Of a stretch of DNA of 32,816 nucleotides, positions 4,502-29,678 are shown piece by piece. The notes beneath the pieces were generated by a model. The model was not told the origin of the DNA. It saw only the letters and a program-made list of their open reading frames with translations, and searched no databases. The DNA is from an uncultured Clostridia bacterium (GTDB taxonomy: Bacteria; Bacillota; Clostridia; Christensenellales; Aristaeellaceae): assembly GCA_904420265.1 (NCBI GenBank), contig CAJFUU010000191.1:1-32816 (forward strand), given 5' to 3'. Positions within the stretch are counted from its first letter, which is position 1. Every line of letters starts with the position of its first letter. A program made the translations under genes and the position numbers.

Positions 4502-4666
4502 CTTTGCTATATTATTGAACTTCTCCTGAATCAGAGCAGCACAGTTTTTCACCGCCGGCCGTATGTGTCTCTCCCTCCTTTGTAAAGCGAATCCCCTCGG
4601 GCGTTGAACCGGGTCAAAGGGGAAAGGCTCATGTCTTGGCAAAATGGAGCGCGTTTAAGGAGGCGT

Positions 4667-5872: not shown

Positions 5873-5887
5873 GCTTCGTCTCCTCCG

Positions 5888-7589: not shown

Positions 7590-8474
7590 CTACCTGCGCA
7601 GGGAGTCAACAAAGTGGCGCGGTGTACATCCGCGTATTTCCTTAAAGCATTTGATGAAGTAGCTCATATTCTCAAAGCCGCTTTCGTATCCTGCCGCATA
7701 GACGGGCTTGCCCATCATCAGCAGTTTGCTGGCGCTGTATATGCGTACGCGCTTGACGTATTGGATGTAGTTCAACCCAGTTTGCTGCTTGAACCATTTG
7801 CAGAAATAGTGCTTGCTAAAGCCCACCACTGCGGCGGCGGCATCCAGGGTGATGCGGCTGGAGTGGTGTTCATGCGTCCAGGAAATGAGCGCTCTGAGTT
7901 CCTCTTTGGTACTGGAGAGGCGCTCGACGCCGCCGTGCGAAGGAGCGATATGGCGCGCGATGATTTCGATGATGCTCAGTATCGCAATATTGCGCTTAAA
8001 GACGTTGTCGTCATTTTCAAAAAGCACATTCATAAGCGCGCGCATATCGTTATAATCGGGTATGATCATGGGCGCGTTGCAAAGCTGCAGACCGTTTTCA
8101 GCCAGAAAATTGTCAATATTGATATAGTGGCGCATGGACTCAAGCGAGATTTGCAGGCAGTGAATCGCGCCCATTTCGCCCGTGACCCAGCCGCCATGTA
8201 CCAACAGCGGCGGCACGACGACGACGGTGTTGCCGCTGATATGCTGATGACGGCCGTCGCATACCACGCTGCCGACTACGTTCTCATACAATACGATTTC
8301 CAGGGTAGACGCATAGTGCAGAGGCACATCGTCGTTGCCCAGAACGCCGCGAGTGGTCAGGCGATAGGGCACGCTTGCGGAAAGCGGCAGCGTTTCGTTT
8401 AAAAAAAGCGGCCGGCGCGCCTCGTCACCAATGCGATGGACCGCCCAGAAGTTTGTGATAGAAGCGTCGCTCAT
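7590..8474 (-). CDS. AraC family transcriptional regulator (cupin-like sensor + HTH), divergent from the GRE operon
   Basis: 294-aa ORF. C-terminal AraC HTH (FSKHYFCKWFKQQTGLNYIQYVKRVRI...GYESGFENMSYFIKCFKEIRGCTPRHF). The N-terminal ~150 aa look like an AraC ligand-binding/cupin domain. AAGGAAG RBS before the ATG at 8474. Confidence 0.9.
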   Translation of the reverse strand: MSDASITNFWAVHRIGDEARRPLFLNETLPLSASVPYRLTTRGVLGNDDVPLHYASTLEIVLYENVVGSVVCDGRHQHISGNTVVVVPPLLVHGGWVTGEMGAIHCLQISLESMRHYINIDNFLAENGLQLCNAPMIIPDYNDMRALMNVLFENDDNVFKRNIAILSIIEIIARHIAPSHGGVERLSSTKEELRALISWTHEHHSSRITLDAAAAVVGFSKHYFCKWFKQQTGLNYIQYVKRVRIYSASKLLMMGKPVYAAGYESGFENMSYFIKCFKEIRGCTPRHFVDSLRR

Positions 8475-8490
8475 GGAAATCTTCCTTTTG

Positions 8491-8524
8491 ACAATATTGT
8501 TGTATCATTCACCAATATATTGGT
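8491..8524. promoter_or_regulatory. Two perfect palindromes sharing the CAATAT half-site (candidate operators) in the divergent intergenic region
   Basis: ACAATATTGT (8491-8500) and ACCAATATATTGGT (8511-8524) are both exact palindromes. Their centres are 22 bp apart, about two helical turns. The second one abuts the putative -35 of the plus-strand operon. Confidence 0.4.
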
Positions 8525-8552
8525 TGCATTTGTGAGTGCAAACGCGCATAAT
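8524..8552 (+). promoter_or_regulatory. Putative sigma-A type promoter for the GRE operon
   Basis: TTGCAT (8524-8529), 17-nt spacer, CATAAT (8547-8552), about 80 nt upstream of the ATG at 8634. Sequence pattern only. Confidence 0.35.
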
Positions 8553-8633
8553 AATAACAAATTTATTATAACACAAAATTGTCCGCCCTGGGGAGAAATG
8601 GTGGAAATTAACAAATGCGGTGGAGGGAAAGCA

Positions 8634-10128: not shown

Positions 10129-10959
10129 ATGGAAGTGGTGCTCGTTGGGAACTGCGCGCCGGCGCAGGAGTTGTTTCTCGTCGGAGAGGCCGAGGGGCTG
10201 CGGCGTGGCGAGACGGCGGGACAAGGACAGACCGCATTTTTGTGCTGCGAGGCCGAGGAACTTGAATCGCGCGCGACAGCATTGGCGCGCGACGGGGCGG
10301 ATGTCGTCCTGCCTGGCTGGATGGCGGCGTGTAGTGCGGCGCTTCTCCGCCTGGACGCTGCGTTCTCCGACTATGGCCGCAAGCTGCGAGTGCTATTCCT
10401 GGAACGCTATTTGAGCGATGTGCGCGATGTTGCACGCATGCTTGCACGGGGAAACATGGGTAGAATCGGCATGGTTGACTTTCTGCGCGCTTGGCCATGT
10501 GCGAAGCAGAACGCGCTGTATCCCCTGGCCGAGGGGTTGGGCGTGGTCACGGGTTGGTTTGGAATGCCGCAGACGGCGCGCATCTATCTCGCGCAAGAAG
10601 AGCAGACGCGCTGCGCAACGCTCACAGCGCGCTTTGCAGGCGGTGAACTTTTGAATTTGCAGGCCGTGTGTTCGCCGGCACAGCGCGGTTGGGACATGAT
10701 CTATGAACTGAGCGGCTCGCAGGGCAACCTTTGCCACGACGCATGCAGGGCGCGTTGGGTTCGCTATAGCAATGCTTCGGGCGACGCCCCGGCGGAGCGT
10801 TTTGCGCTGCTGGGCACAGGGGTATGTCCGCTGCGCGCGGCGCTGCGGGCGCTTCCTGGCTTGCTTGCGGAACAAGCGCCGGGCTTGGACGAAGAAGCGC
10901 GCGCCGTCGCGCAGGTCGTTGAACGCGCGCTTGGAGAGGAGGCTGTGACCGATGCGTAA
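10129..10959 (+). CDS. Truncated/degenerate Gfo/Idh/MocA-like protein (no glycine-rich loop, no EKP motif)
   Basis: The ATG at 10129 follows GAAGGAGGAGAGG. The ORF-track start at 9907 lies inside the previous gene. 276 aa. Only the C-terminal-domain-like part looks like the family (ARGNMGRIGMVDFLRAW..., TLTARFAGGELLNLQAV). The segment that normally carries the EKP lysine is absent. Its last 8 nt overlap the next gene. Confidence 0.55.
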   Translation: MEVVLVGNCAPAQELFLVGEAEGLRRGETAGQGQTAFLCCEAEELESRATALARDGADVVLPGWMAACSAALLRLDAAFSDYGRKLRVLFLERYLSDVRDVARMLARGNMGRIGMVDFLRAWPCAKQNALYPLAEGLGVVTGWFGMPQTARIYLAQEEQTRCATLTARFAGGELLNLQAVCSPAQRGWDMIYELSGSQGNLCHDACRARWVRYSNASGDAPAERFALLGTGVCPLRAALRALPGLLAEQAPGLDEEARAVAQVVERALGEEAVTDA

Positions 10960-11932
10960 GATCAGGGTCTGTATCCTGAGCGTGGCGCATGTACACACGC
11001 CGACCTATGTGCGTTGTCTACGGCATAATCCTGGCGCGGAGATCGTCGGTTTTTATGATGAAGATGCCGAGCGCGCACAGGCGTTTGCGCAAGAGCAAGG
11101 AGTCAAGCGTTTTTGCGATGCGCGGAAGCTTCTGGAGGAGGAAAAACCGGACGTGGCGCTGGTGTGCGCCCAGAACATGCGTCATGCCCGCTGGGTGAAA
11201 ATGGCCGCCGACGCTGGTGTGGACGTGCTGTGTGAAAAACCGCTGGGAGTGGGAGGCATGGACGCCCAGGATATGATTGACCACTGCCGGCGGCGGGGTG
11301 TGCGGCTGATGACGGCAATGTGCAACCGCTACATTCACGCCTATCGGGAGGCAGCAAACGCAGTGCGCGAAGGCAGGATTGGGCGGCTTGTCGCGGTGTT
11401 TGCCAGCAACAAAGGAACGATGCCGGGCGGATGGTTTGTCCAGCGGGAGGAGTCGGGCGGCGGCTGTATCATCGATCATACGGTACACGTGGCCGACCTG
11501 ATGAATTGCCTTGTAGGCGCGTTGCCCGAGGAGGTCTGGGCGCTTGAGGGCCACAACCTGTTTTCCATGGACGTGGAAGACTGCGCGGTGATAAACATGC
11601 GCTATCCAGGGGGCGTGCTGGTAACCCTGGACGCGAGTTGGTCGCGCACAAGGCACTTCCCCTATGGGCGGGACCTGACGCTGCGGCTGGTCGGCACCAA
11701 AGGCAATATATATGTGGACTATTTTTCTCCCAACAACGAGGTATACGCCCCCGGCGAGCGTATTTACAGCTACTACGCCGAGGACAAGGACCAGATGATG
11801 ATCGACGATTTGATTCAGTGCTATCAGGAGGGCAGGCCTTTTGGCATCACCGGAGAGGATGGCCGCGACTGTGCGCTTGTGGCGGAGGCGGCGTATCGCT
11901 CGCTCAAGGCCAAAGCGCCGGTGCGGCTATGA
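10952..11932 (+). CDS. Gfo/Idh/MocA family oxidoreductase (paralog 1)
   Basis: 326 aa. Starts KIRVCILSVAHVHTPTYV... Has VLCEKPL (EKP motif) and GGGCIIDHTVHVADLM (D..H catalytic region). 8-nt overlap with the upstream gene. Confidence 0.88.
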   Translation: MRKIRVCILSVAHVHTPTYVRCLRHNPGAEIVGFYDEDAERAQAFAQEQGVKRFCDARKLLEEEKPDVALVCAQNMRHARWVKMAADAGVDVLCEKPLGVGGMDAQDMIDHCRRRGVRLMTAMCNRYIHAYREAANAVREGRIGRLVAVFASNKGTMPGGWFVQREESGGGCIIDHTVHVADLMNCLVGALPEEVWALEGHNLFSMDVEDCAVINMRYPGGVLVTLDASWSRTRHFPYGRDLTLRLVGTKGNIYVDYFSPNNEVYAPGERIYSYYAEDKDQMMIDDLIQCYQEGRPFGITGEDGRDCALVAEAAYRSLKAKAPVRL

Positions 11933-11964: not shown

Positions 11965-13098
11965 ATGGCGAAGGGGAAATTGAAAGTTGCGTTCATTAGC
12001 GGCGGTATGATCAGCAATGCCGCCCACATACCCGCTTATCGCAACCTGGCGGACAAGGTTGAGATCGTCGCCGTGTGCGATATTTACGAGCCGACCGCAC
12101 GCGCCACGGCGCAGCGCTGGGAAATCCCCTCTTGGTATACCGATGCTGCGGAAATGCTGGAAAGGGAAAAGCCTGATTTGGTCAGCGTATGCACATCCAA
12201 CGCCGCGCACAAGGCGATGTCGCTCCTGGCGCTGGAAAGCGGCGCCAACGTCCTGTGCGAAAAGCCGTTGGCATTTCGCTATACCGATGCCAAGGAACTG
12301 TTTGATACCGCGGCGCGACAGGGCAGGATGCTGGTAACGTGCCAATCTTCGCGCTTTACGCCGGAATATTTGGATGCGCGGGAACTGGCTGAGCACGGCT
12401 GCCTCGGCAACGTCTACTTTGCCGAAGTCAGCCGCATTCGCCGTCGCGGCGTGCCAACCTGGGGCAATTTTCACCGCAAGGACATCAATGGCGGCGGCGC
12501 GTTTTGTGACATAGGCGTGCATGTGCTCGACGCGGTGGTGTGGATCATGGGCAATCCGAAGATGAAGAGCGTTTCCGGAGCGATGAGCAGTGTGCTCACC
12601 CGCAAGGGAGAGAATCTGGTCACCAGTTTAAGCGAAGCCGGCGCGCCGCTTGGACGCTTCGGCGGTCGTTGCAGCTATACGCCCGACCAGTTCGAAACCG
12701 AGGAGTTTGCCGCCGGCAGCATTCGGTTTGAAAACGACGCCATGCTCAACTTCAAGGTTGCCTGGGCGGTCAACCTGCCCGTGAGCAACGCCATCAGCGT
12801 GGTGGGCGAGCGTGCAGGGCTCCTTTTGCCTGAATTCAGGCTGCTTTCGACCTATGACCGCTACCAGGCGGATATACTGCCCCGCCGCTTTAACGACGAG
12901 CGCAAGTATGCCGACAAAACCTTTAACGGTCACTGGCGCCTGATTGAAAACTACGTCAACGCCCTTCTGGGGTTGGAGGAGCCAATGATTCGGCCAGAGG
13001 AGACGCTCAACGTCTCGGCGATTATTGACGCCTTCTATCGCTCGGCACAGTTGGGACGCGAGGTGCGTTTTGACGAACTGACGCAATCGCCGGCCTGA
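11965..13098 (+). CDS. Gfo/Idh/MocA family oxidoreductase (paralog 2)
   Basis: 377 aa. Starts LKVAFISGGMISNAAHIPAY. Has VLCEKPLA and GGGAFCDIGVHVLDAV. AGGGAGG RBS. Confidence 0.88.
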   Translation: MAKGKLKVAFISGGMISNAAHIPAYRNLADKVEIVAVCDIYEPTARATAQRWEIPSWYTDAAEMLEREKPDLVSVCTSNAAHKAMSLLALESGANVLCEKPLAFRYTDAKELFDTAARQGRMLVTCQSSRFTPEYLDARELAEHGCLGNVYFAEVSRIRRRGVPTWGNFHRKDINGGGAFCDIGVHVLDAVVWIMGNPKMKSVSGAMSSVLTRKGENLVTSLSEAGAPLGRFGGRCSYTPDQFETEEFAAGSIRFENDAMLNFKVAWAVNLPVSNAISVVGERAGLLLPEFRLLSTYDRYQADILPRRFNDERKYADKTFNGHWRLIENYVNALLGLEEPMIRPEETLNVSAIIDAFYRSAQLGREVRFDELTQSPA

Positions 13099-13112
13099 AA
13101 GGAGGATGAGCC

Positions 13113-14246
13113 ATGGGAAGACCGCTCCGGGCCGTGGTGATCGGAGCCGCGCATGTACACATTTTGGAGGTGTGCAAGTACGTAAACGACTGCGAGGAGA
13201 TGGAATTGGCAGGCGTGGCAGACGTGGCGCCGGCCGACGCCCCGGATCTGGAGTGCGACGGGCCTTATACGCGCAGGTGGAATTTGGAGTTTGTGCGCCG
13301 TTACGGCGCGAACGTCTATGACGATTACCAGGATATGCTTGAGCAGGTACGGCCGGATTTGGCGCTGATCACCACCGAGAACTGCATGCACGTGGAGGTG
13401 GCGCACGCCTGCATTGAGCGCGGGGTGAGCGTGTGCGTGGAAAAACCCATGGCTTGCGACTTGGCCGGGGCGCTTAAGATAGCGCGCCTGGCGCGTGAGA
13501 GAGGCGTCGAAGTGTTTGTTAACTGGCCAATCGCCTGGCGCGAGTGGCTCTACCGGATGAAGGACGTGCTGGATTCCGGCCGTATGGGACCGCTGATCAA
13601 GGTGCGCTATCTTGCGGGGCAGACGGGCCCGCTCGGCCCGGGCGCGCTGCACCGGGGAACGGATGGGAAAAAGGCCGAAGAGATGGCCCCGGCGCAAAAA
13701 TCGCGGACCTGGTGGTACCAGAAGGACCACGGCGGCGGCGCGTTTCTGGATATGTGCTGCTATGGCAGCATGATGAGCGTGTGGTTGACCGGGAGCGAGT
13801 GCCAGGCCGTGTCGGCCATGTGCGGCAATTTTGCGCATGACTGGAGCGACGTGGAGGACAACGGTATAATGCTTTTGCGCTTTCCCAAAAGCGTCGCGGT
13901 CGTAGAAGGCACTTGGACGACGCCGGCGGCAGCGATCGCGCCGGGACCGGAAATCTTCTGCCGCGGCGGAGTTATCGCCTGTGAGCGGCGCGGCGCGCAA
14001 GTGGCAGTATATCTGACCGACCTGTACGGAAACGTCGAGTACCTTCCCGACATCGCGCCCGACCCGGCCCTGCGCAATATCGCCTGCGCATTTGCGGCCT
14101 ATCGCCTGCATGGGCGGGAGATGCCGCCGATCACGCGGCTGGAAAACAACCTTCGTTCGATGGCGATTCTCGACGCGGGACTGCGTTCGGTGCGCAGCGG
14201 AAAAACCGAACTGGTTGACAACGCGGTTTGGGGGAACATGGGATGA
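13113..14246 (+). CDS. Gfo/Idh/MocA family oxidoreductase (paralog 3)
   Basis: 377 aa. Starts LRAVVIGAAHVHILEV. Has VCVEKPMA. GGGAFLDMCCYGSM carries Tyr where paralogs 1 and 2 have His. AAGGAGG RBS. The stop overlaps the next start (ATGA). Confidence 0.85.
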   Translation: MGRPLRAVVIGAAHVHILEVCKYVNDCEEMELAGVADVAPADAPDLECDGPYTRRWNLEFVRRYGANVYDDYQDMLEQVRPDLALITTENCMHVEVAHACIERGVSVCVEKPMACDLAGALKIARLARERGVEVFVNWPIAWREWLYRMKDVLDSGRMGPLIKVRYLAGQTGPLGPGALHRGTDGKKAEEMAPAQKSRTWWYQKDHGGGAFLDMCCYGSMMSVWLTGSECQAVSAMCGNFAHDWSDVEDNGIMLLRFPKSVAVVEGTWTTPAAAIAPGPEIFCRGGVIACERRGAQVAVYLTDLYGNVEYLPDIAPDPALRNIACAFAAYRLHGREMPPITRLENNLRSMAILDAGLRSVRSGKTELVDNAVWGNMG

Positions 14247-15085
14247 AACGCACGGCGATGATTGCTGACATCCAGCGCAGCAGCGTGCACGATGGCCCGG
14301 GATTTCGCACAACGGTGTTTTTCAAGGGGTGCCAAATGCGTTGCGCATGGTGCCACAATCCGGAGACGATCTCCTTTCAACGGCAGATTCTTCGCTATCC
14401 TGAAAAGTGCATCGGCTGCGGGTATTGCGAGGAGGGCTGTTTTTCGGGGGCGCAGGTCGTCTGCGGACGGGAGATGTCCGTAGAGGACGTATTTGCACAG
14501 ATCGAAGAAGACCGCCCCTATTACGGCGAAGAGGGCGGCGTGACGCTTTCGGGCGGCGAACCGCTGTGCCAGGCGCAATTTGCTTTGGCGCTGATCGAGC
14601 GATGCCGTGGGGAGGGCATTGGCTGCGCGATGGAGAGTAATCTTTCAGTGGATTGGGAAGTCGCGCGACCGGTTGTGGAGCGATTATCGCTGCTGATGGC
14701 CGACCTGAAGGTCTGGGACGAGGCGTTGCACTGCCGTTATACAGGGCTGGGCAATCGCCTGGTGTGCGAAAATCTTGTCCGCACGCAGGAGACCGGCGTG
14801 CCACTGATTCTGCGCACGCCGGTCGTACCCGGCGTCAACGCCACCAACAAAGAGATCGGCGAAATCGCCGCCTTTGCCCGCGGGCTTTCCAACCTGCGCT
14901 ATTACGAATTGCTCAGCTATCATCCGCTGGGGCTTGACAAGGCGCGGGCACTGGGCCGCGAGATATGTGAATTTGATAGACCTACGCGCGAGACGATGCT
15001 TTCCTTGGCCGAAACGGCGCAGGCCATCGGCATTCCTGTGGTCATTAACGGCGTGAGACTGGAGGCTTTTCGGAAGGAAGGGTAG
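14243..15085 (+). CDS. Glycyl-radical enzyme activating enzyme (radical SAM)
   Basis: IQRSSVHDGPGFRTTVFFKGCQMRCAWCHNPE is the GRE-activase N-terminal signature with the CX3CX2C cluster. One ferredoxin-type motif, CIGCGYCEEGC. SAM-binding GGVTLSGGEPL. The ATG at 14243 overlaps the upstream stop. The ORF-track TTG at 14228 is an alternative start. Confidence 0.9.
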   Translation: MKRTAMIADIQRSSVHDGPGFRTTVFFKGCQMRCAWCHNPETISFQRQILRYPEKCIGCGYCEEGCFSGAQVVCGREMSVEDVFAQIEEDRPYYGEEGGVTLSGGEPLCQAQFALALIERCRGEGIGCAMESNLSVDWEVARPVVERLSLLMADLKVWDEALHCRYTGLGNRLVCENLVRTQETGVPLILRTPVVPGVNATNKEIGEIAAFARGLSNLRYYELLSYHPLGLDKARALGREICEFDRPTRETMLSLAETAQAIGIPVVINGVRLEAFRKEG

Positions 15086-15089
15086 ACGC

Positions 15090-17246
15090 ATGGCGGAATG
15101 GACATACCGACAGCGCATGGAGAGCCTGCGCAAGACCAAGCAGAAGCACACCTTTGCCAAGCGGGAACAGAAGGGGTATACCGACGAAGATGACTACGGA
15201 AACATACCGGTGCCGCCGGAGTTTTGTTTCCGCCCCCAGCCCAACAGCCCCAACGGAGGCATCTATGGCTACGACGGTCTTTCACGGGCGTTGGAAGGGA
15301 TGCTGGACGCCTATCCAATTTACGTCGATCCACTGGAGATGCTGTGCGGACGTTGGAGCAAGTTGTTGACCGATTACCGCGCCGACACGCGCTGGGATGA
15401 GGTGCGCTTTCCCTATGACGACCTCAAACCCCTGCAAGAGTTCTACGACATCACAAGCGGCCTGGACAACGAGGCGCACTGCACGCCGGACTTCCGTATC
15501 GGGTTGCGGCTGGGATTTGGGGGACTTTTGGAAAAGGTGCGCTTTTATCGTTGCCTTAACCCCGACCGCTCCGAATATTACGATGCCGAGGAGCGGGTGC
15601 TGTTGGCGATTCAGCGCTTCATCGGCCGTCACATCGAAAAGATCAAGGCCCTGTTGGCCGTCGAGGACCGGCCGGAGATTCGCGACAGCTTGCACCAGAT
15701 GCTCGTCGCCAATGAAAACATTGTTTCGCATCCGCCGGAGACGTTTTTGGAGGCCTGCCAGTGGACGGCATATTTTGCCAATGTCTCGCGCGCTTATAAC
15801 CGTGACGGCGCTGGCTATCAGCTCGACGTGGTGCTCACGCCGTATTACGAGCACGATGTGGCCGCGGGGACACTCGACGACGAGAAGGCGACCTTTATCC
15901 TGGCAAACCTGCTTTTAATCGACACGCGCTACTATCAGATTGCAGGGGTGGACGCCTTTGACCGGGACCAGACCTGCCGCCTGTCGTATTTGATTCTTGA
16001 GGCGGCGCACTGGCTGCGCGGCACGGCGAACCTGACGGTGCGCGTGCATGAAAACGTCTCGCGCGAGTTTTTGCGCACGGCAGTGACGTATTTGTTCCGT
16101 GACCGCTGCGCCTGGCCGCGTTTTTGCGGCGACGATGCGCTGGTCAAGGGCTTTTTGCAAAATCGCGGCGTGGACAAGCGCCTTGCCCGCGAGCGCGTCG
16201 CCTCGGGGTGTAACTGGCTGTGCGTGCCCGGGCGCGAATACTGCATCAACGACACGGTCAAAATCAACATCGCCCGCGTCTTTGACGTGGCCTTCCACGA
16301 TATGATGGACAGCCACAGCCAGCCTTCGACACAACTGCTCATGGATTACTTTCGCAGGCACCTTGAGCGCGCTGTGGACGTGACCGCGCGCGGCGTGGCG
16401 CTGCGCCTTGCGCATATCGAGCAAGTGCAGCCGGAGTTGCTGATCAACCTGCTCACCCATGGAAGCATAGAAAGCGGCACGGATATCTCGCGCTGCGCCC
16501 AGCTGCACACCATCGGCGTAGACGGCGCGGGCCTGGCCGTAGTAGCGGATTCGTTTGCCGCGCTGGAACAGCGTGTGGAGCGCGAACGGCTCGTTGGCTG
16601 GGAAGAGGTACATCAGGCGCTGCACGAGGACTTTGCCGGCATCCAGGGAGAGCGGCTGCGGCAAATGCTGGCCGCCTCCGAGCGGTACTGTCAGGGTGGA
16701 AGTCTGGGCGATCGCTGGGCGCGGCGCGTGACGGAGTGCTTTAGGCAACTGGTGCACAACCAGCCCATGCCGGAGGGCAGCCAGCTGGTGCCGGGCTGGT
16801 TCTCCTGGTCGCGCACGATTCTCTACGGCCAGCGCGTAGATGCCACGCCCAACGGCCGCCACGCTCATACGCCGATTTCCCACGGCGCCAACCCGGTTCC
16901 AGGATTTCGCAAAGACGGAGCCGTCACTGCGCAATCCACAGGCATCGCTTCGGTACAACTCAGCCTGGGCAATACCGCGCCTTTGCAACTGGAGTTCGAC
17001 CCCAGGATTTCCGAGGAGGAAGGCGGCATTGAACGCATTTTGCAACTGATTTTGCAGCATTTCCGCCTGGGAGGTACGCTGGTCAACATCAACGTGCTCG
17101 ATGGCGAGAAACTCCTGGCCGCACACAAAAACCCTGCGTTATATCCGGACTTGGTGGTGCGGGTGACGGGATTTACGGCCTATTTCGTCTCGCTTTCCAG
17201 GCAATTTCGCCAGCTCGTGGTGGATCGCTTCCTCAACGGCTTTTAG
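15090..17246 (+). CDS. Glycyl radical enzyme (PFL-like fold), short, with non-canonical Cys loop
   Basis: 718 aa. C-terminal glycyl-radical motif LVVRVTGFTAYFVSLSRQFRQLVVDR. Cys-loop region NRGVDKRLARERVASGCNWLCVPG. Other GRE-typical blocks: PETFLEACQW, DGAGYQLDVVLTPYY, HGANPVPGFRKDGAVTAQSTGIASV. Starts 4 nt after the activase stop. Confidence 0.9.
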   Translation: MAEWTYRQRMESLRKTKQKHTFAKREQKGYTDEDDYGNIPVPPEFCFRPQPNSPNGGIYGYDGLSRALEGMLDAYPIYVDPLEMLCGRWSKLLTDYRADTRWDEVRFPYDDLKPLQEFYDITSGLDNEAHCTPDFRIGLRLGFGGLLEKVRFYRCLNPDRSEYYDAEERVLLAIQRFIGRHIEKIKALLAVEDRPEIRDSLHQMLVANENIVSHPPETFLEACQWTAYFANVSRAYNRDGAGYQLDVVLTPYYEHDVAAGTLDDEKATFILANLLLIDTRYYQIAGVDAFDRDQTCRLSYLILEAAHWLRGTANLTVRVHENVSREFLRTAVTYLFRDRCAWPRFCGDDALVKGFLQNRGVDKRLARERVASGCNWLCVPGREYCINDTVKINIARVFDVAFHDMMDSHSQPSTQLLMDYFRRHLERAVDVTARGVALRLAHIEQVQPELLINLLTHGSIESGTDISRCAQLHTIGVDGAGLAVVADSFAALEQRVERERLVGWEEVHQALHEDFAGIQGERLRQMLAASERYCQGGSLGDRWARRVTECFRQLVHNQPMPEGSQLVPGWFSWSRTILYGQRVDATPNGRHAHTPISHGANPVPGFRKDGAVTAQSTGIASVQLSLGNTAPLQLEFDPRISEEEGGIERILQLILQHFRLGGTLVNINVLDGEKLLAAHKNPALYPDLVVRVTGFTAYFVSLSRQFRQLVVDRFLNGF

Positions 17247-17325: not shown

Positions 17326-17354
17326 TTGTGTGGGGTCAAGGTTTGCGCTATAGT
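17326..17354 (+). promoter_or_regulatory. Putative sigma-A type promoter ahead of the gldA-like ABC module
   Basis: TTGTGT (17326-17331), 17-nt spacer, TATAGT (17349-17354), 47 nt upstream of the ATG at 17401. Sequence pattern only. Confidence 0.35.
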
Positions 17355-17400
17355 TAAATTACATGCAAGAACAAGAGAAAGTGGGAAAGGAGGCGTCCGC

Positions 17401-18351
17401 ATGATCGAAGTATCGGGCCTGAGCAAAAAATATGGCGACAAGACCGCGCTTGAGGACGTCAGCTTTTCCGTTGGCGAGGGCGAAATCGTCGGGCTGTTGG
17501 GGCTCAACGGCGCAGGCAAGAGCACGACCATGAACATCCTTGCCGGCTATATCGGCGCAACTTCCGGAGCGGTGCGCATTGCGGGGCTGGACATACTCGA
17601 GCAGGCGCGCGCGGTGCGGGCGCTGGTGGGCTATCTGCCCGAACAGCCGCCGCTGTATGGCGAGATGACGGTGACGGAGCAACTGCGTTTTGTCCACCGG
17701 CTCTATGGCCGGCGCGGAGACTGCGCGGCAAACATGGAAAGGGTCATGCATATGACCGGCATTTTTGAGGTGCGCGGTCGGCTCATTCGCAACCTGTCCA
17801 AGGGCTACCGCCAGCGTGTGGGCATCGCGCAGGCGATTCTGCCCCGCCCCAAAGTGCTGATTTTGGATGAGCCCAGCGTCGGGCTTGACCCGACGCAGGT
17901 CGTGGAAATGCGCGCCCTGATTCGCGAAGTGGCTCAGGACACCACGGTGATTTTGTCCTCGCACATCCTCTCAGAGGTGCAGGCGGTGTGCGGTCGGGTG
18001 TTGGTACTCAACCGCGGTCGCCTGATCGCGGACGACACGCCCGGACACCTGGCCGAGATTATGCATGGCAAACGCCGCGTTGCGGTGCGCGTATTGGGCG
18101 AAGAACAGGCCGTGCGCGCCGCTCTGGAGAGCATTGAAGCCGTGGCGTCGGTTACATGCGCGGGCCATAGAGAGCTGGGCACAGTGGATTTTGTTGTCGA
18201 AGGCGCGCAGGAGCGCGACGTGCGTGTGGATGTGTTTGAGGCGTTGGCGCGCGCTGGGCTGCCGCTTTTATGCACATACGGAAGCGAGTTATCGCTCGAG
18301 GAAGTCTTTTTGCGCCTGGTTGAAAGCGACGCGAAGGGAGGGACGGGATGA
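17401..18351 (+). CDS. ABC transporter ATP-binding protein (ABC-2/GldA-like)
   Basis: The ATG at 17401 follows GAAAGGAGG. The ORF-track start at 17326 overlaps the promoter region. Walker A GLNGAGKST, signature LSKGYRQR, Walker B VLILDEPSVGLD, H-loop SSHIL. Confidence 0.9.
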   Translation: MIEVSGLSKKYGDKTALEDVSFSVGEGEIVGLLGLNGAGKSTTMNILAGYIGATSGAVRIAGLDILEQARAVRALVGYLPEQPPLYGEMTVTEQLRFVHRLYGRRGDCAANMERVMHMTGIFEVRGRLIRNLSKGYRQRVGIAQAILPRPKVLILDEPSVGLDPTQVVEMRALIREVAQDTTVILSSHILSEVQAVCGRVLVLNRGRLIADDTPGHLAEIMHGKRRVAVRVLGEEQAVRAALESIEAVASVTCAGHRELGTVDFVVEGAQERDVRVDVFEALARAGLPLLCTYGSELSLEEVFLRLVESDAKGGTG

Positions 18352-19052
18352 GCGCGATCTTTCTGCGGGAAATCCGCGCTTATTTCAAGGCGCCGCTGGG
18401 CTATGTGTTTGTGGGCGCGACGTGTCTGTTTGCCGGACTGTACTTCTATGCCTACAACCTTTTTGGCGGGGCGGCCAGTCTCGACAGCCTGTTTTCGGCG
18501 CTATTTTCGGTGGAACTTTTTCTCATTCCCATCCTGACGATGCGCCTGCTTAGCGAGGAGCGGCGCCAGAAGACCGATCAGCTCTTGCTCACTTCTCCTG
18601 TCAGCGGTATGGGAATCATCCTGGGCAAATATCTGGCGGCAATGGCTGTGTTTGCGCTCGCGGCTGGGGTGACGCTGCTGGACGCGGCGGTTCTTGACGC
18701 GTTTGCGCGCGTGAACTGGAAATTGACGCTGGGGAGTTACGCAGGTCTGGTACTCTTTGGCGCGGCGCTGGTGGCGATCTGCCTGTTTCTCTCGTCGTTG
18801 ACCGAAAGCCAGTTAATCGCGGCAGTAAGCGGTTTTTCGGTAAGTCTGTTGGTAATTCTGCTGGATACGCTGGCGCCGATTCTGGATAACGCCGTTCTCA
18901 AGGCCCTGTGCGGCTATTTGAATTTCGCCTCCCGCTATGCGCCGTTCACCTATGGCGTGTTCGCATTGGAAAACGTGATATTCTTTCTAAGCATTGCAGG
19001 ACTGTTTCTCTACCTGACGACAGCGCGGATGGAGCGCAGGAGGTGGAGCTGA
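18348..19052 (+). CDS. ABC-2 type transporter permease (GldF-like)
   Basis: 234 aa, about six hydrophobic helices. Starts MSAIFLREIRAYFKAPLGYVF, typical of ABC-2 permeases. 4-nt overlap with the ATPase gene. Confidence 0.8.
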   Translation: MSAIFLREIRAYFKAPLGYVFVGATCLFAGLYFYAYNLFGGAASLDSLFSALFSVELFLIPILTMRLLSEERRQKTDQLLLTSPVSGMGIILGKYLAAMAVFALAAGVTLLDAAVLDAFARVNWKLTLGSYAGLVLFGAALVAICLFLSSLTESQLIAAVSGFSVSLLVILLDTLAPILDNAVLKALCGYLNFASRYAPFTYGVFALENVIFFLSIAGLFLYLTTARMERRRWS

Positions 19053-19053
19053 G

Positions 19054-20487
19054 ATGAAAAGACGCAACGCCTTTGCCCTCGCGCGCCGTCTGCACGTTTT
19101 GCAGGTGCTGCTGGCGATTCTGTTGGTCATAGCAATCAACGTAGCGGTGGCGGCGCTCGCGCGGCGGTACCCTTTGCGACTGGATCTGACGGCCAATGCC
19201 CGCTATGAGCTTTCCGAGGAAAGCCGCAGTTTTCTCTCCTCGCTGGACAAGAAAATTCATATCTACGTACTGGCCGACGAGGAGGAATATGCGCGCGCCT
19301 CGACCTACACCACTTACGCCGCCACGCTGCTTGCCCAGTATCCTCTCTACGCAGATATAGAACTCACTTACGTCGATTTTGCCGCCGATCCTACTTTTGC
19401 TGCGCGCTATCCCGAGATACAGCTCGCGCAAAACGGCATTGTGGTCGAGTGCGAAGGCAGGGCGGTGGCGCTGGAAACCAGCGACCTGTTCGAATACAGC
19501 TATTCCGCAGCCAATGAAATCCAGGTCAGCGCCGTGGGTGAAGCGCAGCTTGCCGCGGCGATCGCTGGCGTACTCAATCCGGTGCGCGCGCATGCGACAG
19601 TGCTGGTAGACAACGACGCGCAGCCGGTCGAGGCGTTCACGGAACTTTTGAGGGCCAACGGCTTTGCAGTGAGCGAGGGTTCCCTGGCGTTGGGCAACGT
19701 GGACGCAGCGTGCGACATGCTGATTTTGGTCGCGCCTATGAGCGACTTCACGCAGGAACAGGTTTCCGCGCTGGAGGCATGGCTGGTCAACGGCGGCGAG
19801 TATGGCCGCACGCTGTTTTACGCCGCCGACGTTTCGCAGCCGGAGCTTCCCAACCTGGAGAACTTCTTGCGCGAATGGGGCGTGAGCGTGGATGACGGCG
19901 CGGTGTTTGAAACTTCTGCCGAGCGCACCAGTCAGAACCAGCCCTTCTTCGCCACAGTGGAGATCGACGACGAGGCGCTTGCCGGAGAACTTGCGCAGGA
20001 AAGCATGCCCATCGTCGCGCCGATGGCGCGCCCGCTGACGGTGCGCTTTGCCTTCCAGGAAAGTTACAGCACCCAGACGATTCTCTCATTTTCCGAGACA
20101 AGCGGCGTTCGTCCCTCCGACGCGTCCCAGGACTTTTCCGCTGCGGACGCTCAGCGCCGCGGGCCGATTCCGGCGCTGGTGTGCGCCTCTTTGGCACCTG
20201 ACGGCGCAAAGGCCTCGCGCATTTATGTCAGCGGTTCGGCCTCGCTTTTGGACAGTACAATTCTTGAGGGTAACGCCTTCCTCAACCGCCGCTTTTTGTC
20301 AACGCTGCTTTCGCCGACGACGCAGGGGGCGAGCCTGCCCAACTTCGTAAGCAAGCAGATCAGCGACGAGCGCGTCTACATTCCCTCCGCAACTGCCAAT
20401 ACGCTGGGTATAGCGTTGGCGATTGTGTTGCCGCTGGCGCTGATTGCGGCGGGGTTGACATTCTTCCTGCGAAGGAGACGGCTGTAA
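19054..20487 (+). CDS. GldG-like ABC-transport auxiliary protein (ABC_transp_aux family)
   Basis: 477 aa. N-terminal and C-terminal TM anchors (LLAILLVIAINVAVAAL; LGIALAIVLPLALIAAGLTFFL). LDLTANARYELSEESRSFLSSLDKKIHIYVL matches the GldG family opening. Its position after the GldA/GldF-like genes also fits. Confidence 0.7.
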   Translation: MKRRNAFALARRLHVLQVLLAILLVIAINVAVAALARRYPLRLDLTANARYELSEESRSFLSSLDKKIHIYVLADEEEYARASTYTTYAATLLAQYPLYADIELTYVDFAADPTFAARYPEIQLAQNGIVVECEGRAVALETSDLFEYSYSAANEIQVSAVGEAQLAAAIAGVLNPVRAHATVLVDNDAQPVEAFTELLRANGFAVSEGSLALGNVDAACDMLILVAPMSDFTQEQVSALEAWLVNGGEYGRTLFYAADVSQPELPNLENFLREWGVSVDDGAVFETSAERTSQNQPFFATVEIDDEALAGELAQESMPIVAPMARPLTVRFAFQESYSTQTILSFSETSGVRPSDASQDFSAADAQRRGPIPALVCASLAPDGAKASRIYVSGSASLLDSTILEGNAFLNRRFLSTLLSPTTQGASLPNFVSKQISDERVYIPSATANTLGIALAIVLPLALIAAGLTFFLRRRRL

Positions 20488-21896
20488 TGACCAGACAGGT
20501 TCGAAGGCTGATTTTTACGGCTGCGGCATTGGTGGTCGTAGCGGCGGCGGGATGGCTGCTTTTGCGTCAGGGCGAGCAAAAACAGCAAGCAGCGCAGCCG
20601 CAAGGGCGCACGCTGGGTTTTGGCGCGGTCGAGCAGGTGCGCATAAGCAATGCGGAGGGGGAATATGTCCTCGCCTCGCAGGGCGTGGATGTGTTGCCCG
20701 AGGGACTGGCCGCGGACGAGTTGACGGCACTGACAATGGAAGCGCTCGCGTCGTTTGCGGTAGGACAGAGCATCAACGCCGATGTGGACGCGGCGCTCTA
20801 CGGCCTGGAAGAGCCAAATGTGGATGCGACGATTCTCTACGCCTCTGGGCAAAGCCTTCGCGTGCGGCTGGGGAAGCGTGAAAGCGTCAGCGGCGACTAC
20901 TACTGCCGTTTTGACGACGAGACGGAGATATACCTACTCAGCCAGGATATCGCCGAGCGGCTGTTGCTTTCGCCCGAGGATTACATTTCCCTGCAAATTA
21001 CGCCTGCTTGCCGCACACAAACTTCGCTTTCGGCGGTAACGGACGCACGCCTTTATACGCCGCAGGGAGAGATATCCATTCGCTCCTGCGCCAATCCCGA
21101 CGAAGAGACGCGCTTGGAAATGCTCTCCTTTGGCGCTGTGACCCACTTGGTCGACGGGCCGGGTATCGTACACGAAATGGATCGCACCTATGGACAGGAG
21201 ATTTTTGACGCTCTGTTTAACCTCTGCGCCACCGAGGTAGTCGCCTACGGGCTGGACGAAGCGGGGCTCGCGCAGATGGGATTTGACCAGCCGGATGCGG
21301 CGGCGGAGTTTTTCATGCGCAATGGCGAAGAGCCGGATACGCCCGAGGAGCGCTGGGTTCTGCGCGTGGTCTTTGAGGATGGAGAGAACGCCTTGATCAC
21401 AGCAAATGACAGCGGCGTGGTCTATCGCGCGCCGCGGCCGGCGTTTGCAAGCGCCCAGTACGAGCAGTTGGTGATGCGCTGGTTTGTCTCGCCTTTGATG
21501 ACGGATTTGCGCGCGCTCTGCGTAGAGATTGACGGGCTTGAGCGCGTCTACGAAATCGGCGGCAGCGCCGCGCAGCCGGAAATTTACTGTGAGGGCAAGG
21601 CGATCGACCTTACGCGGTTTCGTTCGTTTTACACGTTGGCCGTCAGCGCCGCCAGCAACGGCGACTATATGGGAATTGCGCAGCCGCAGGGTGAACCGGT
21701 GCTGACGCTGCGCTATCGCTATAAAGACGAGCAAAAGGCAGACGACGTCCTGGAGATGTACGCAATGGACGCGCGTACGTTGTTGGTGTCTGTCAATTCG
21801 GTAGCAGAATTTGCGATGCGTCGAAACTATGCCGACGTATTCATGCAGGCGATTGAGGCGCTGGAAACGGGCGGGGAGATCGCGCAGACCTGGTAA
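20487..21896 (+). CDS. DUF4340-like membrane-anchored protein
   Basis: 469 aa with a single N-terminal TM (LIFTAAALVVVAAAGWLLL). The start overlaps the gldG-like stop (TAATG). The call rests mainly on the conserved position downstream of gldG-like genes. No catalytic motif recognised. Confidence 0.5.
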   Translation: MTRQVRRLIFTAAALVVVAAAGWLLLRQGEQKQQAAQPQGRTLGFGAVEQVRISNAEGEYVLASQGVDVLPEGLAADELTALTMEALASFAVGQSINADVDAALYGLEEPNVDATILYASGQSLRVRLGKRESVSGDYYCRFDDETEIYLLSQDIAERLLLSPEDYISLQITPACRTQTSLSAVTDARLYTPQGEISIRSCANPDEETRLEMLSFGAVTHLVDGPGIVHEMDRTYGQEIFDALFNLCATEVVAYGLDEAGLAQMGFDQPDAAAEFFMRNGEEPDTPEERWVLRVVFEDGENALITANDSGVVYRAPRPAFASAQYEQLVMRWFVSPLMTDLRALCVEIDGLERVYEIGGSAAQPEIYCEGKAIDLTRFRSFYTLAVSAASNGDYMGIAQPQGEPVLTLRYRYKDEQKADDVLEMYAMDARTLLVSVNSVAEFAMRRNYADVFMQAIEALETGGEIAQTW

Positions 21897-21927
21897 AGAT
21901 ACGCAGACAAACTGGAGGGACAAAAGC

Positions 21928-22863
21928 ATGAAGGTAGGGCTGTATTCGATTTCGTATTCGGGTACCTGGTATGCCGACAAGCCGGCGTTGACAGTCGAGG
22001 AAGTGATCGACCGGGCGGCGCTGTATGGCTATGACGGCGTGGAGATCGACCTCAAGCGACCGCACGGCTCGCCCATCGACCTGGACGAGGCGCGCTGTGG
22101 GCAGATTCGCGACTACGCGCGTTCCAAGGGAATTGAAATCTGCGGCGTGGCGGCCAACAACAACTTCGCCTCGCCCGTGGCAGAGCAGATGGAAAACGAG
22201 TTGCTCATGGTCAAGGAGCAGATACGCGTCGCGCGTCAATTGGGCGCGCCGGTTCTGCGGCTGTTTGCAGCCTGGCCAGGCGTCACCTATCGCAATGGCA
22301 TTGCTACTTATGAAGAAACGCGCAAAATGCATCACTTCTATGGAAGCCTCGATTATGAAATCCGCATTCGCGTTACGCAGTGCTTCCGCGAGTGCGCCAA
22401 GTGGGCGCAGGAGGCGGGGATTATATTGGCATTGCAAAATCATGAGCCAGTAATTCGCAGCTATAACGATATGCTGGACTTTGTTCGCTGGGTGGACTCG
22501 CCCAACTTCAAGTGCTGCCTGGACGCACCCAATTGCGGGCTGAGCGAGCGCACGCAGAGCGACGAATATCTTACCCGCGCGGTGCGCGAGGTTGGCGACA
22601 AACAGATGATTACCCACGCCAACGGCGAGCTGCGCGAGGAAAACGGCCAGGTCGTCATGTTCCCCTACGAGACAAGCAATCCCATTTATCCCAACTATCG
22701 CGCCTTCATTCGCGCGCTCAAGCAAGTGGGATATCAGGGCTATATCAACTACGAATTCTGCCACATGCCTTTTTATGACGGAAAGGTGCTTGGATTTGAT
22801 TATGTAGACAATCAGGTGCGCCTGGCGCAGCGGTACTTCCGTGATTTGATTGCGCAGGCCTGA
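21928..22863 (+). CDS. Sugar phosphate isomerase/epimerase (xylose-isomerase-like TIM barrel) 1
   Basis: The ATG at 21928 follows GGAGGG. 311 aa. AP_endonuc_2-type layout: YGYDGVEIDL, GIEICGVAANNNF, LGAPVLRLFA, ILALQNHE, and the C-terminal YQGYINYEF metal-site strand. Confidence 0.8.
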   Translation: MKVGLYSISYSGTWYADKPALTVEEVIDRAALYGYDGVEIDLKRPHGSPIDLDEARCGQIRDYARSKGIEICGVAANNNFASPVAEQMENELLMVKEQIRVARQLGAPVLRLFAAWPGVTYRNGIATYEETRKMHHFYGSLDYEIRIRVTQCFRECAKWAQEAGIILALQNHEPVIRSYNDMLDFVRWVDSPNFKCCLDAPNCGLSERTQSDEYLTRAVREVGDKQMITHANGELREENGQVVMFPYETSNPIYPNYRAFIRALKQVGYQGYINYEFCHMPFYDGKVLGFDYVDNQVRLAQRYFRDLIAQA

Positions 22864-22909
22864 GGATGTACTTCAAGCGGAAATGCTTAGAAAAAAAGGA
22901 GGAACCCCA

Positions 22910-23953
22910 ATGAAGAAGATGCTTGTAACCCTGCTGGCTTGCGCGCTTATACTCTGCAGCGTTGCCGGCGCCGAATCGACCTCTGTGCGCGTCGCCTCCC
23001 ACAACGCGGTAGTGGAAGGCAACGCCTACCGCGTTCAGTACGAGCTGGACATTCAGGATGCGGCTGAGGCCGCGGCCGAGTATGGCTTTGATGTGTCCTA
23101 CTCGTCGTTTGTGGCCAACAACGACCCCTCTCTCGAAAGCCAGATGCTCGAGCAGAGCATCAACGAGGGCTATGACATCATCCTGATTGACCCCGTGGCT
23201 CCCACAGGACTCGACCCGATCATCGAGAAAGCCAGAGACGCGGGCATCTACTGGCTCAACTGCGACTGCGAGTACTACTCCGACGAGATTATCAACGTCT
23301 GCCTGGATCAGTATCAATGGGCGTATGACGGCGCGAAGTGGCTGGCCGAAGAACTGGGCGAGGGCGCAAAAATCGTCGTCTTTGACGCCACGGATGGCAA
23401 CGCCGCCAACGAGCAGCGCGAGCAGGCTTTCAATGATGTCATTGAGGAGTACAACCTCGAAGTAGTTAAGCGCGTCAACCACAACTGGAACGCGGCGCTT
23501 GCGCAGCAGCTGATGACCGAGATTATCAACTCCGGCGTCGAGTATGACGGCATCCTGTGCTCGAACCAGGCGTTCTTCATTTTCAATGCCCTGGACGAGG
23601 CGGGCGCGGACTATCCCAAGGCCATCGCCCTGGACGACCACACCGGCTGGGCGCAGAACATGCTTACCATCAACCAGGACGAGGAAGTCATGCCCTATCT
23701 GTTCATCAGCAACACGCCTGGCGTGGGCGCTATCGCGCTCAACATCGGCCTGGGTCTGCTCAGCGGCGGCGAACTGCGCGACGATATCTATGGCAATCCC
23801 GACTACAACTCCATCTACATCGCCTCAACGTTCCAGTTTTCCTATGAAAACCAGGAGGACTATCGCGACTATATGATGGCGCTGGGCACCAACAACAAGG
23901 CCACTTTCTGGTACGACTATGAAGAGTGCCAGGAACGCTACTTTGTTTCCTGA
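22910..23953 (+). CDS. Sugar ABC transporter substrate-binding protein (periplasmic-binding-protein type I, RbsB-like), secreted/lipoprotein
   Basis: The ATG at 22910 follows AAGGAGG. Signal peptide MKKMLVTLLACALILCSVAGA, with a possible LLAC lipobox. PBP-I type body (GYDIILIDPV, KARDAGIYWLN, KIVVFDATDGNAANEQRE). Confidence 0.8.
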   Translation: MKKMLVTLLACALILCSVAGAESTSVRVASHNAVVEGNAYRVQYELDIQDAAEAAAEYGFDVSYSSFVANNDPSLESQMLEQSINEGYDIILIDPVAPTGLDPIIEKARDAGIYWLNCDCEYYSDEIINVCLDQYQWAYDGAKWLAEELGEGAKIVVFDATDGNAANEQREQAFNDVIEEYNLEVVKRVNHNWNAALAQQLMTEIINSGVEYDGILCSNQAFFIFNALDEAGADYPKAIALDDHTGWAQNMLTINQDEEVMPYLFISNTPGVGAIALNIGLGLLSGGELRDDIYGNPDYNSIYIASTFQFSYENQEDYRDYMMALGTNNKATFWYDYEECQERYFVS

Positions 23954-23962
23954 AGTCAATCT

Positions 23963-23998
23963 GGCCATCCCTGCCGAAAGCCGTCGGCAGGGATGGCC
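23963..23998 (+). other. Perfect 14-bp-stem hairpin directly after the binding-protein gene (intercistronic stabiliser/attenuator candidate)
   Basis: GGCCATCCCTGCCG (23963-23976) pairs perfectly with CGGCAGGGATGGCC (23985-23998), with an 8-nt loop. No U tract follows. A weaker 7-bp hairpin (CGCCATG/CATGGCG, 24043-24059) follows, then GTGTTTG. Confidence 0.5.
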
Positions 23999-24120
23999 CC
24001 GAAGCGCGTCGCATGGCGCGAAACTGAGCGAGCAAAAATCGTCGCCATGTTCCATGGCGGTGTTTGAATACAGGATTGCAGGCGCCTTGCCTGCGCGCAG
24101 ACCAAGCGAAACGGAGAGAT

Positions 24121-29676: not shown

Positions 29677-29678
29677 GC

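Follow-up and report, generated by a model that had tools for sequence, protein, structure and literature searches.

A Glycyl Radical Enzyme with Tryptophan in Place of the Catalytic-Loop Glutamate, Encoded with Gfo/Idh/MocA Dehydrogenases in Uncultured Clostridia

The window analyzed here is a stretch of 32,816 nucleotides (contig CAJFUU010000191.1, assembly GCA_904420265.1) from an uncultured Clostridia bacterium of the Christensenellales. It contains a gene for a glycyl radical enzyme (GRE; 15090..17246, + strand, 718 aa), identified from its open reading frame (ORF), Pfam, AlphaFold2, and Foldseek, and placed below in the GCNW subfamily of a clade that we call CxW, after the tryptophan that occupies the position of the glutamate in the Cys-x-Glu (CXE) motif. 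The genes of the window follow the order AraC-type regulator (on the - strand), DUF3604/PHP-like protein, Rossmann-like protein, three oxidoreductases of the Gfo/Idh/MocA family (hereafter GFO), activase, and GRE, followed by an ABC-2/GldG-like/DUF4340 group, and then by a TIM barrel, a CUT2 sugar ABC transporter, a second TIM barrel, NagA, and ROK. That the gene encodes a real GRE of an uncharacterized CxW clade, coupled to GFO dehydrogenases, is highly probable.

The Radical Enzyme and Its Activase

The GRE gene starts 4 nt 3′ of the stop codon of the activase gene and is preceded by a ribosome-binding site (GGAAGGAAGGG); its translation is probably coupled to that of the activase. No longer frame is possible at the locus. 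The protein has the two domains of the GRE superfamily (PFL-like, IPR004184), the barrel domain (Pfam PFL-like PF02901, 1.8e-74) and the C-terminal glycine-radical domain (Gly_radical PF01228, 1.8e-13). The G+C content is 60% in the GRE gene and 57% in the window. Two long antisense ORFs, one overlapping the neighboring oxidoreductase gene GFO-2 (13035-14312, - strand, 425 aa) and the other the GRE (15915-17126, - strand, 403 aa), have no family hits and, because of the high G+C content, are regarded as artefacts.

The upstream gene (14228..15085, + strand, with a possible later ATG start at 14243) codes for a GRE-activating radical SAM enzyme, with 259.9 bits for TIGR02494 (cut-off 174) and Radical_SAM, Fer4_12, and Fer4 domains. 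The GRE thus has the cognate radical SAM activase that characterizes members of its superfamily. The activase of the window and 73 homologs contain a single complete ferredoxin-type CX2CX2CX3C motif, and the spacing between CX3CX2C and GGEP is fixed at 66 residues in 68 of the 73. The insert of a typical PFL2-type activase has two motifs and is longer, and that of the PFL activase is shorter than the one found here. The activase may bind a single auxiliary cluster.

The Cys loop lies within the translation of 16197-16238, VASGCNWLCVPGRE, with its tip, G373-C374-N375-W376, at 16206..16217 (+ strand); translation and alignments predict C374 as the thiyl-radical cysteine. HMMER pairs the sGCnWlcvPG of the query with vGCvElsiPG in PflD, dGCvEiapfG in the Archaeoglobus PFL2, iGCiEtavgG in YbiW, and iGCvEpqkPG in glycerol dehydratase, and these alignments to solved GREs are gapless from AR(D/E) through GC to PG. 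A MAFFT alignment with PflD, YbiW, and PflB of E. coli K-12 agrees, and in both W376 falls on the position of the CXE glutamate. In an AlphaFold2 model built with 40 family sequences (pLDDT 91.9, pTM 0.92), strands 370-372 and 376-378 form a hairpin with C374 at its tip, and strands 689-692 and 695-698 form another, tipped by G694. As a prediction from alignment and modeled structure, C374 as the catalytic cysteine is secure. The initial annotation had read the GCNW loop as the GRE Cys loop with tryptophan replacing glutamate, and the gapless HMMER pairings, MAFFT, and AlphaFold2 all bear this out; pairwise, multiple, and structure-predicted alignments place no other cysteine at the tip of the finger loop. 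Foldseek relates the model to more than 50 GRE chains at a TM-score of ~0.8, the model being equally distant (TM-score ~0.8, 17-22% identity) from solved eliminases, isomerases, decarboxylases, and succinate synthases.

The same annotation had taken the glutamate two residues after the cysteine to be common to characterized 1,2-eliminases and arylacetate decarboxylases, which is slightly too broad for the latter: in phenylacetate decarboxylase, Gln484 stands two residues past the catalytic Cys482. Gln484 is listed among the catalytically essential residues of that enzyme (Imrich et al., June 2026, PMC13450708). The generalization stands for eliminases and extends to isomerases. All GRE 1,2-eliminases and isomerases keep CXE, and in every structurally characterized one the glutamate hydrogen-bonds a substrate hydroxyl, which it is proposed to deprotonate (PMC13450708). 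The query has W376 instead. The adjacent pair of cysteines noted for PFL was recovered as C418-C419 of PflB; G373-C374 aligns with it, and the query lacks the two adjacent cysteines of formate lyases.

The Gly loop, R691-V-T-G694 (17160..17171, + strand), carries the predicted site of the glycyl radical, G694, an assignment made from translation, conservation, and the model. The C-terminal translation of this region is VVRVTGFTAYFVSLSRQFRQLVVDRFLNGF. The stretch RVTGFTAYFVSLSRQFRQLVVDR fits the glycyl-radical fingerprint RVxG[FWY]x6-8[IL]x4Qx2[IV]x2R everywhere except at the Q, where the query has R707 (17208-17210). This arginine is present in all 40 family members, and glutamine is found in 51 of 54 CxE enzymes. 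The radical glycine is preceded by T693 (17166-17168), giving RVTG, versus serine or alanine in the non-CxW PFL2-like proteins. G694 is invariant in all sequence groups and is not replaced by Ala, Ser, or Thr as it would be in an aminoacyl radical enzyme (AARE). The clean C-terminal glycyl-radical motif of the initial annotation is therefore confirmed by the translation, the Pfam Gly_radical domain, the fingerprint, and the RVTGFTAYF of the homologs.

A Clade with Tryptophan after the Catalytic Cysteine

A word-indexed search for homologs gave at least 120 clusters at 56-100% identity, among which the best annotation is "formate acetyltransferase." Every one of the clusters listed has both GC[N/H/S]W[M/L/V] and RVTGFTAYF, and the alignment of 40 family sequences has ~170 invariant positions. 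Conservation across the family rules out an isolated mutation or a pseudogene. The initial annotation had also remarked that the protein is short. With 718 aa it has 47 residues fewer than PflD (765 aa), and since the homologs have 705-744 aa in all of the at least 120 close clusters, short size is a trait of the family and not a truncation. A truncated or mis-started gene is excluded by the same lengths, by the maximal length of the ORF, and by the probable coupling with the activase. The loss had been attributed mostly to the N-terminus, where indeed ~42 of the 47 residues are missing (the HMMER alignment with PflD begins at position 119 of the query and 161 of PflD); what had been overlooked is an internal deletion in an active-site strand, the one with the invariant Y281-Y282-Q283, amounting to ~9 residues in HMMER against glycerol dehydratase and ~20 in MAFFT against PflD. 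It is offset by small insertions elsewhere, and the segment concerned corresponds to the one bearing F327 and W333 in PFL.

Scanning a single genome for each GTDB species gave at least 554 confirmed loci, nearly all in uncultured Clostridia from the gut, the rumen, or digesters. They belong to Christensenellales, Oscillospiraceae, Acutalibacteraceae, and Lachnospiraceae, with a few Victivallales in addition, and the closest loci among the matches listed are from Christensenellales (74-77% identity). Some genomes have two copies of the GRE (L013, L047, L053, and L071; L045/L072 and L049/L088 are pairs of contigs, each pair from one metagenome-assembled genome). The copies are either neighbors or lie on different contigs, only some have a second activase with them, and their presence indicates an expansion of paralogs. 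A few loci come from assembled genomes labeled as Burkholderiales, a thaumarchaeote, Limnocylindria, or Paludibacteraceae (L015, L034, L012, and L058). Their genes are Clostridia-like, at 56-71% identity, and they are probably contaminants of binning rather than evidence of a real taxonomic spread.

An exhaustive HMMER search, covering 1.84 billion representatives, found that Cys-x-Trp persists down to ~27% identity, in loops such as GCHW, GCQW, GCFWY, ACPWY, and GCGWY, and that sequences with the canonical GCVE appear only at 30% identity to the query or less. A neighbor-joining tree of 82 full-length sequences groups the CxW proteins, without exception, in a single clade, sister to a CxE assemblage that includes PflD and YbiW. 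Neither the query nor any of ten diverse CxW representatives reaches the cut-off of any curated NCBIfam model. The ten score at best 369 bits with the PFL2/glycerol-dehydratase subfamily model (cut-off 678). The query scores 260.9 bits with TIGR01774 (cut-off 678.2), 61.7 with TIGR01255 for formate lyases (cut-off 994), 85 with NF033715 (cut-off 1150), and less than 200 with all equivalog models (cut-offs of at least 1000); BSS matches it at 1e-7 only, and PFL aligns over the C-terminal 140 residues only. Tryptophan at this position is present in no characterized GRE class of the June 2026 review (PMC13450708) and is not described in the literature searched. Hence, GCNW is standard only in an uncharacterized family, and none of the characterized subfamilies was found to have it. 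By sequence, the CxW GREs are a large, widespread, and distinct GRE clade with an altered catalytic loop that the literature searched does not describe.

The replacement of the glutamate is accompanied by other changes, as can be seen by comparing the GCNW family (n = 40), other CxW proteins (n = 18), and non-CxW PFL2-like proteins (n = 54). Position 376 is W in all 58 CxW sequences (40/40 in the family and 18/18 in the others), and among the non-CxW proteins it is E in 43 and Q in 7. Two acidic residues are equally invariant in the CxW set, D388 (58/58 versus 14/54) and E449 (58/58 versus 0/54), and E383 nearly so (56/58 versus 12/54). Invariants specific to the GCNW family are R238-D239, W342, R344, K391, D478, W570, W573, Q633, E635, N666, and R707. 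At the position of E635 (16992-16994), which lies on an inner barrel strand, 37 of the 54 CxE enzymes, including PflD and YbiW, have lysine, so that the charge is reversed. Relative to glycerol dehydratase (1r8w), H130 corresponds to His164, C374 to Cys433, W376 to Glu435, D388 to Asp447, and R238-D239 to His281-Ser282; Y282 is probably the equivalent of Tyr339. The equivalents of the eliminase His164 and Asp447 thus align and are invariant in the family. To judge from these alignments, the eliminase scaffold is largely kept, the glutamate being specifically replaced while several other acidic residues became fixed, which is the pattern one would expect if the role in proton transfer had moved elsewhere. 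A different solution for proton handling or substrate binding would fit both the Trp-rich strands of the barrel and the co-variation of the clade-specific E383, D388, and E449.

PflD and YbiW, GRE isomerases that open the rings of 1,5-anhydromannitol-6-phosphate and 1,5-anhydroglucitol-6-phosphate, match the query by sequence better than any other solved structure does (7.6e-46 and 1.1e-41). They share with it the fold (TM-score ~0.83), a single-Cys loop, and a histidine at the His164 position of glycerol dehydratase; the aspartate of the Asp447 position is shared by PflD only. They are however only 24-26% identical to the query, have the CXE glutamates Glu433 and Glu443 at the position of W376, and have lysine where the query family has E635. 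The query also lacks ~42 of their N-terminal residues, and its genomic links are with GFO dehydrogenases and ABC uptake, theirs with genes for phosphotransferase systems and phosphosugars. The B12-independent glycerol dehydratase of Clostridium butyricum (1r8w), PD, CutC, HypD, IslA, and HpsG have the same barrel and loop geometry. The query differs from glycerol dehydratase by Trp for Glu435 and Asp239 for Ser282, and there are no microcompartment genes at its locus. PhdB, PFL/TdcE, and the X-succinate synthases also tolerate a residue other than glutamate near the catalytic cysteine (PFL/TdcE have CC), but they belong to other clades, have other partners (small subunits, CoA chemistry), and lack tryptophan at this position. 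The neighbors of the query are GFO, activase, and transporter genes, with none for the small subunits of X-succinate synthases or HPAD-type enzymes.

Conservation of the Gene Neighborhood

The neighborhood was surveyed with tblastn in 85 related loci, 68 of them with 3.6 kb or more of sequence on the upstream side, and recurrent neighbors were taken from an unbiased clustering of all flanking ORFs. The activase lies directly upstream of the GRE in ~70 of 84 loci. At least one GFO gene is directly upstream in 64 of the 68 loci, GFO-2 is directly 5′ of the activase in 62, and the exact order GFO1-GFO2-activase-GRE is found in 47. In ~17 loci the GFO1-GFO2 pair is tandemly repeated, in two or more copies, before a single activase-GRE pair. 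Tandem units, sometimes in three copies, are present in L013, L024, L027, L029, L034, L041, L042, L054, L058, L063, L073, and L076. Their duplication as a unit suggests that GFO1 and GFO2 are an obligate pair, and the repeats suggest that several GFO pairs of differing specificity feed one GRE.

GFO-1 (11965..13098, + strand) has full-length PDB matches to DgpA1 (9m3d, 3.7e-61) and DgpA (7xr9, 3.4e-51) and is, by this homology, a DgpA-like sugar/glycoside 3-dehydrogenase; DgpA is the glycoside 3″-oxidoreductase of the C-deglycosylation pathway of gut bacteria. GFO-2 (13113..14246, + strand) is a divergent Gfo/Idh/MocA protein by Pfam. It keeps the EKP motif and has D-x-x-x-Y where GFO-1 and DgpA have D-x-x-x-H, and its PDB matches are weak, including the sugar 3-ketoreductase KijD10 (1e-9). 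It is probably a ketoreductase. An analogy of the GFO pair with DfgCD was dropped, the literature describing DfgCD only as small proteins of 150-350 aa that act as O-glucosidases. The third oxidoreductase, GFO-0 (10952..11932, + strand; Pfam, NCBIfam), is limited to the closest relatives (L009, L010, and L012). The operon opens with an ORF for a DUF3604/PHP-like metallohydrolase of the CehA/McbA type (8436-10115), followed by a degenerate Rossmann-like ORF without Pfam hit (10129-10959), and both are present only in the two closest loci (L009 and L010). Upstream lies the divergent AraC-family regulator (7590..8474, - strand; Pfam HTH_18, HTH_AraC, and AraC_binding); an AraC-type regulator adjoins the GRE in 46 of 84 loci. 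A scan of the operon for promoters and terminators gave counts inside the range of shuffled controls.

Immediately 3′ of the GRE are genes for an ABC-2-type transporter with its auxiliaries (17326..21896, + strand; Pfam), i.e., an ATPase, a permease, a GldG-like ABC_transp_aux/DUF7088 protein, and a DUF4340 protein. This group adjoins the GRE in ~10-12 close loci, sometimes inverted; in a catabolic operon already equipped with a CUT2 importer, its presence is surprising. It is followed by an accessory TIM barrel resembling xylose isomerase and ketose epimerases/isomerases (21811..22863, + strand; AP_endonuc_2 4.7e-28), weakly similar to ketose 3-epimerases and co-located in ~12 loci. An accessory CUT2-type monosaccharide ABC transporter comes next (22850..27665, + strand; Peripla_BP_4, two ABC_tran, and two BPD_transp_2), made up of a binding protein, a double ATPase, and two permeases. 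The PDB matches of the binding protein are CUT2 sugar-binding proteins, weak and too generic to assign a ligand. NagA (TIGR00221, 303 bits, cut-off 226) and a ROK protein are encoded at 28549-30659. On the other side of the window, 1186-6805 (- strand) codes for a histidine kinase with an AraC-type response regulator, an Fe-alcohol dehydrogenase, and a shikimate-dehydrogenase-like protein.

Other neighbors are found in part of the related loci. A 257-aa TIM barrel, present in 24, is a keto-sugar isomerase of the Hyi/OtnI/YcjR type (hydroxypyruvate isomerase, 2-oxo-tetronate isomerase, or 3-keto-glucoside 4-epimerase; TIGR03234 3.5e-60; PDB 3ngf, 1k77, and 6wn6). A PF12831 FAD oxidoreductase of ~372-400 aa lies just 3′ of the GRE in 18 loci (e.g., L078, 12147-13346); it is common in loci from the human gut and absent from the window. 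One GCNWM member (L093, 45% identical) has no GFO genes and shares its operon with genes for a CUT2 monosaccharide transporter and ROK. More distant CxW GREs, in L089 and L090 (P0156, GCFWY) and on the P0124 contig (GCHWS), have one or two neighbors resembling URO-D (uroporphyrinogen decarboxylase/MtaA-like), and in one distant CxW case a nitroreductase flanks the GRE. This points to other, unrelated functions in the same clade: the coupling with GFO is limited to the GCNW family, and the tryptophan is clade-wide.

Several GFO dehydrogenases together with xylose-isomerase-like TIM barrels, as at this locus, are a hallmark of sugar pathways that oxidize, eliminate, and reduce. Related 3-keto-glycoside pathways are those of levoglucosan (LgdA-C), YcjQRS, and Bacteroides BT2156-2160. 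To our knowledge, neither these nor the DgpA/DgpBC system has a radical enzyme. The locus resembles the DgpA/DgpBC system by its full-length homolog of DgpA, GFO-1, and differs from it in that the conserved central position is held by the GRE and its activase. No lyase like DgpBC or CarBC is present in the window or in the related loci, and the TIM barrels fail to match the corresponding PDB structures. Canonical inositol catabolism was considered and rejected, as there are no genes like iolD, iolB, iolC, or iolJ nearby, and the paper on inositol use in Dysosmobacter mentions no radical or PFL-like enzyme. No system combining a GRE with a Gfo/Idh/MocA, C-glycoside, keto-sugar, anhydroglucitol, or inositol pathway is described in the literature searched, including GRE papers since 2024.

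A Proposed Radical Step in Sugar Breakdown and Its Alternatives

The GRE probably performs an undescribed radical step in the breakdown of a sugar. The context of sugars is suggested by the GFO cassette, the DgpA-like GFO-1, the keto-sugar isomerases, the CUT2 transporters, and the fact that PflD and YbiW are the nearest solved relatives. The reading that we favor, by analogy with known systems and with a probability of roughly 0.5, is that the enzyme uses radical chemistry to cleave a C-O bond in a neutral substrate resembling a sugar, between an oxidation and a reduction that both depend on NAD. This compound would be of monosaccharide size, such as an anhydro-sugar, a cyclitol, a deoxy-sugar, or a small glycoside, or else any of these in its 3-keto form. 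GFO-1 would oxidize a ring hydroxyl with NAD+. A thiyl radical, formed on C374 from that of G694, would abstract a hydrogen atom, and radical C-O cleavage would follow, either dehydration as in glycerol dehydratase or ring opening as in PflD/YbiW. Reduction of the keto product by GFO-2 would make the sequence redox-neutral, as fermentation requires. The proton handling of the CXE glutamate could be taken over by H130, D388, E383, E449, or the family-specific D239 at the position of Ser282 in glycerol dehydratase, and W376 could form, with W342, W570, W573, and Y281/Y282, an aromatic platform packing against the sugar ring.

Several points weigh against this reading. The assignment to sugars is drawn solely from the gene neighborhood. 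Acid-base enzymes already eliminate groups from 3-keto sugars, and a radical enzyme acting after oxidation at C3 is therefore puzzling. The substitute acid/base residues are candidates, chosen from sequence, for a position in the active site, and the alignment of the YYQ at 281-283 differs between HMMER and MAFFT. The neighbor-joining tree has no bootstrap and only three labeled characterized enzymes. Finally, the differing neighbors of other CxW subclades would tie W376 to a feature shared by the clade and not to sugar binding specifically. A more far-reaching proposal, which we regard as tentative, is that the CxW GREs are an eighth functional GRE class and that the GCNW enzyme, acting between a DgpA-like dehydrogenase and a ketoreductase, breaks the bond in an anaerobic pathway for sugars or glycosides that would be new. 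A 3-keto or anhydro sugar could, for example, be deoxygenated, ring-opened, or deglycosylated by a radical mechanism. The tryptophan would then take a direct part, either stacking on and stabilizing the substrate radical or gating the thiyl radical, and would not be a passive filler.

That the thiyl cysteine is C378 (GCNWLC) or another cysteine, the register of the loop being wrong, is suggested only by this second cysteine four residues after C374. It can practically be discounted: position 378 is C in 24, A in 15, and S in 1 of the 40 family sequences, so that 16 of the 40 rule out C378, and C374 is 100% conserved, lies at the hairpin tip of the model, and is aligned gaplessly with four solved GREs. 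A degenerate protein, either an inactive paralog or a mere carrier of the radical, could account for the missing CXE glutamate, the shorter chain, and the scores far under curated cut-offs. We consider it very improbable, given Cys and Gly loops that are invariant in the at least 120 clusters down to 56% identity and clade-wide down to ~27%, a dedicated activase that is nearly always adjacent, ~170 invariant positions, at least 554 loci, and an AlphaFold2 model that is a confident and complete barrel. The sequence and model evidence is that of a complete GRE with intact loops and a cognate activase, under strong selection and apparently functional.

Two alternatives would have the enzyme active with another chemistry. 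It might be a base-independent radical isomerase or epimerase that abstracts hydrogen from a sugar or 3-keto sugar and returns it, so that no group leaves and the outcome is an epimerization or a 1,2-shift; the tryptophan would then simply fill space. Loss of the glutamate across the clade whatever the genomic context would agree with this, as would the recognition of GRE isomerases as a class and the GFO pairs and keto-sugar epimerase-like TIM barrels, which are typical of sugar interconversion (e.g., YcjQRS). In known GRE isomerases, however, CXE is still in use and a C-O or C-N bond is broken. The retention of H130 and D388, like the new fixation of E383 and E449, argues for continued acid-base chemistry, and epimerization is already available through GFO and TIM-barrel enzymes; this explanation is unlikely. 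Quite unlikely, in our view, is also a C-C lyase that replaces the metal-dependent DgpBC by radical cleavage of the C-glycosidic bond in 3-oxo-C-glycosides made by GFO-1. In its favor, GFO-1 is a full-length DgpA homolog at a distance similar to that of the "putative DgpA" paralogs of Catenibacillus, and a DgpBC-like protein is missing, the similarity of the TIM barrels being to ketose epimerases and hydroxypyruvate isomerase. An aromatic aglycone could fit into a Trp-rich pocket, and some loci have a rhamnosidase gene or others of glycosidase type in their vicinity. Yet the linked transporters are of the CUT2 monosaccharide type and not of the CUT1 type for oligosaccharides and glycosides, β-scission of a sugar radical releasing an aryl carbon would be chemically unfavorable, L093 combines its GRE with a sugar transporter and ROK without GFO genes, and the eliminase-type His and Asp are retained.

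The chemistry of GREs touches the host through the production of trimethylamine, p-cresol, skatole, and H2S, and through the use of hydroxyproline and anhydro-sugars, and whole GRE clades remain unassigned according to the latest review (PMC13450708). The CxW clade, widespread in uncultured Clostridia of the gut and the rumen, has a simple signature, Cys-x-Trp for Cys-x-Glu. Within it, the four-gene cassette of the GCNW family provides a new and tightly conserved set of partners and a testable biochemical hypothesis. If C-O cleavage between the two dehydrogenases is correct, it would be the first link of radical enzymology with the logic of transient 3-oxidation known from the DgpA, levoglucosan, and 3-keto-glycoside pathways, and it would show how a GRE manages proton transfer without the canonical glutamate.

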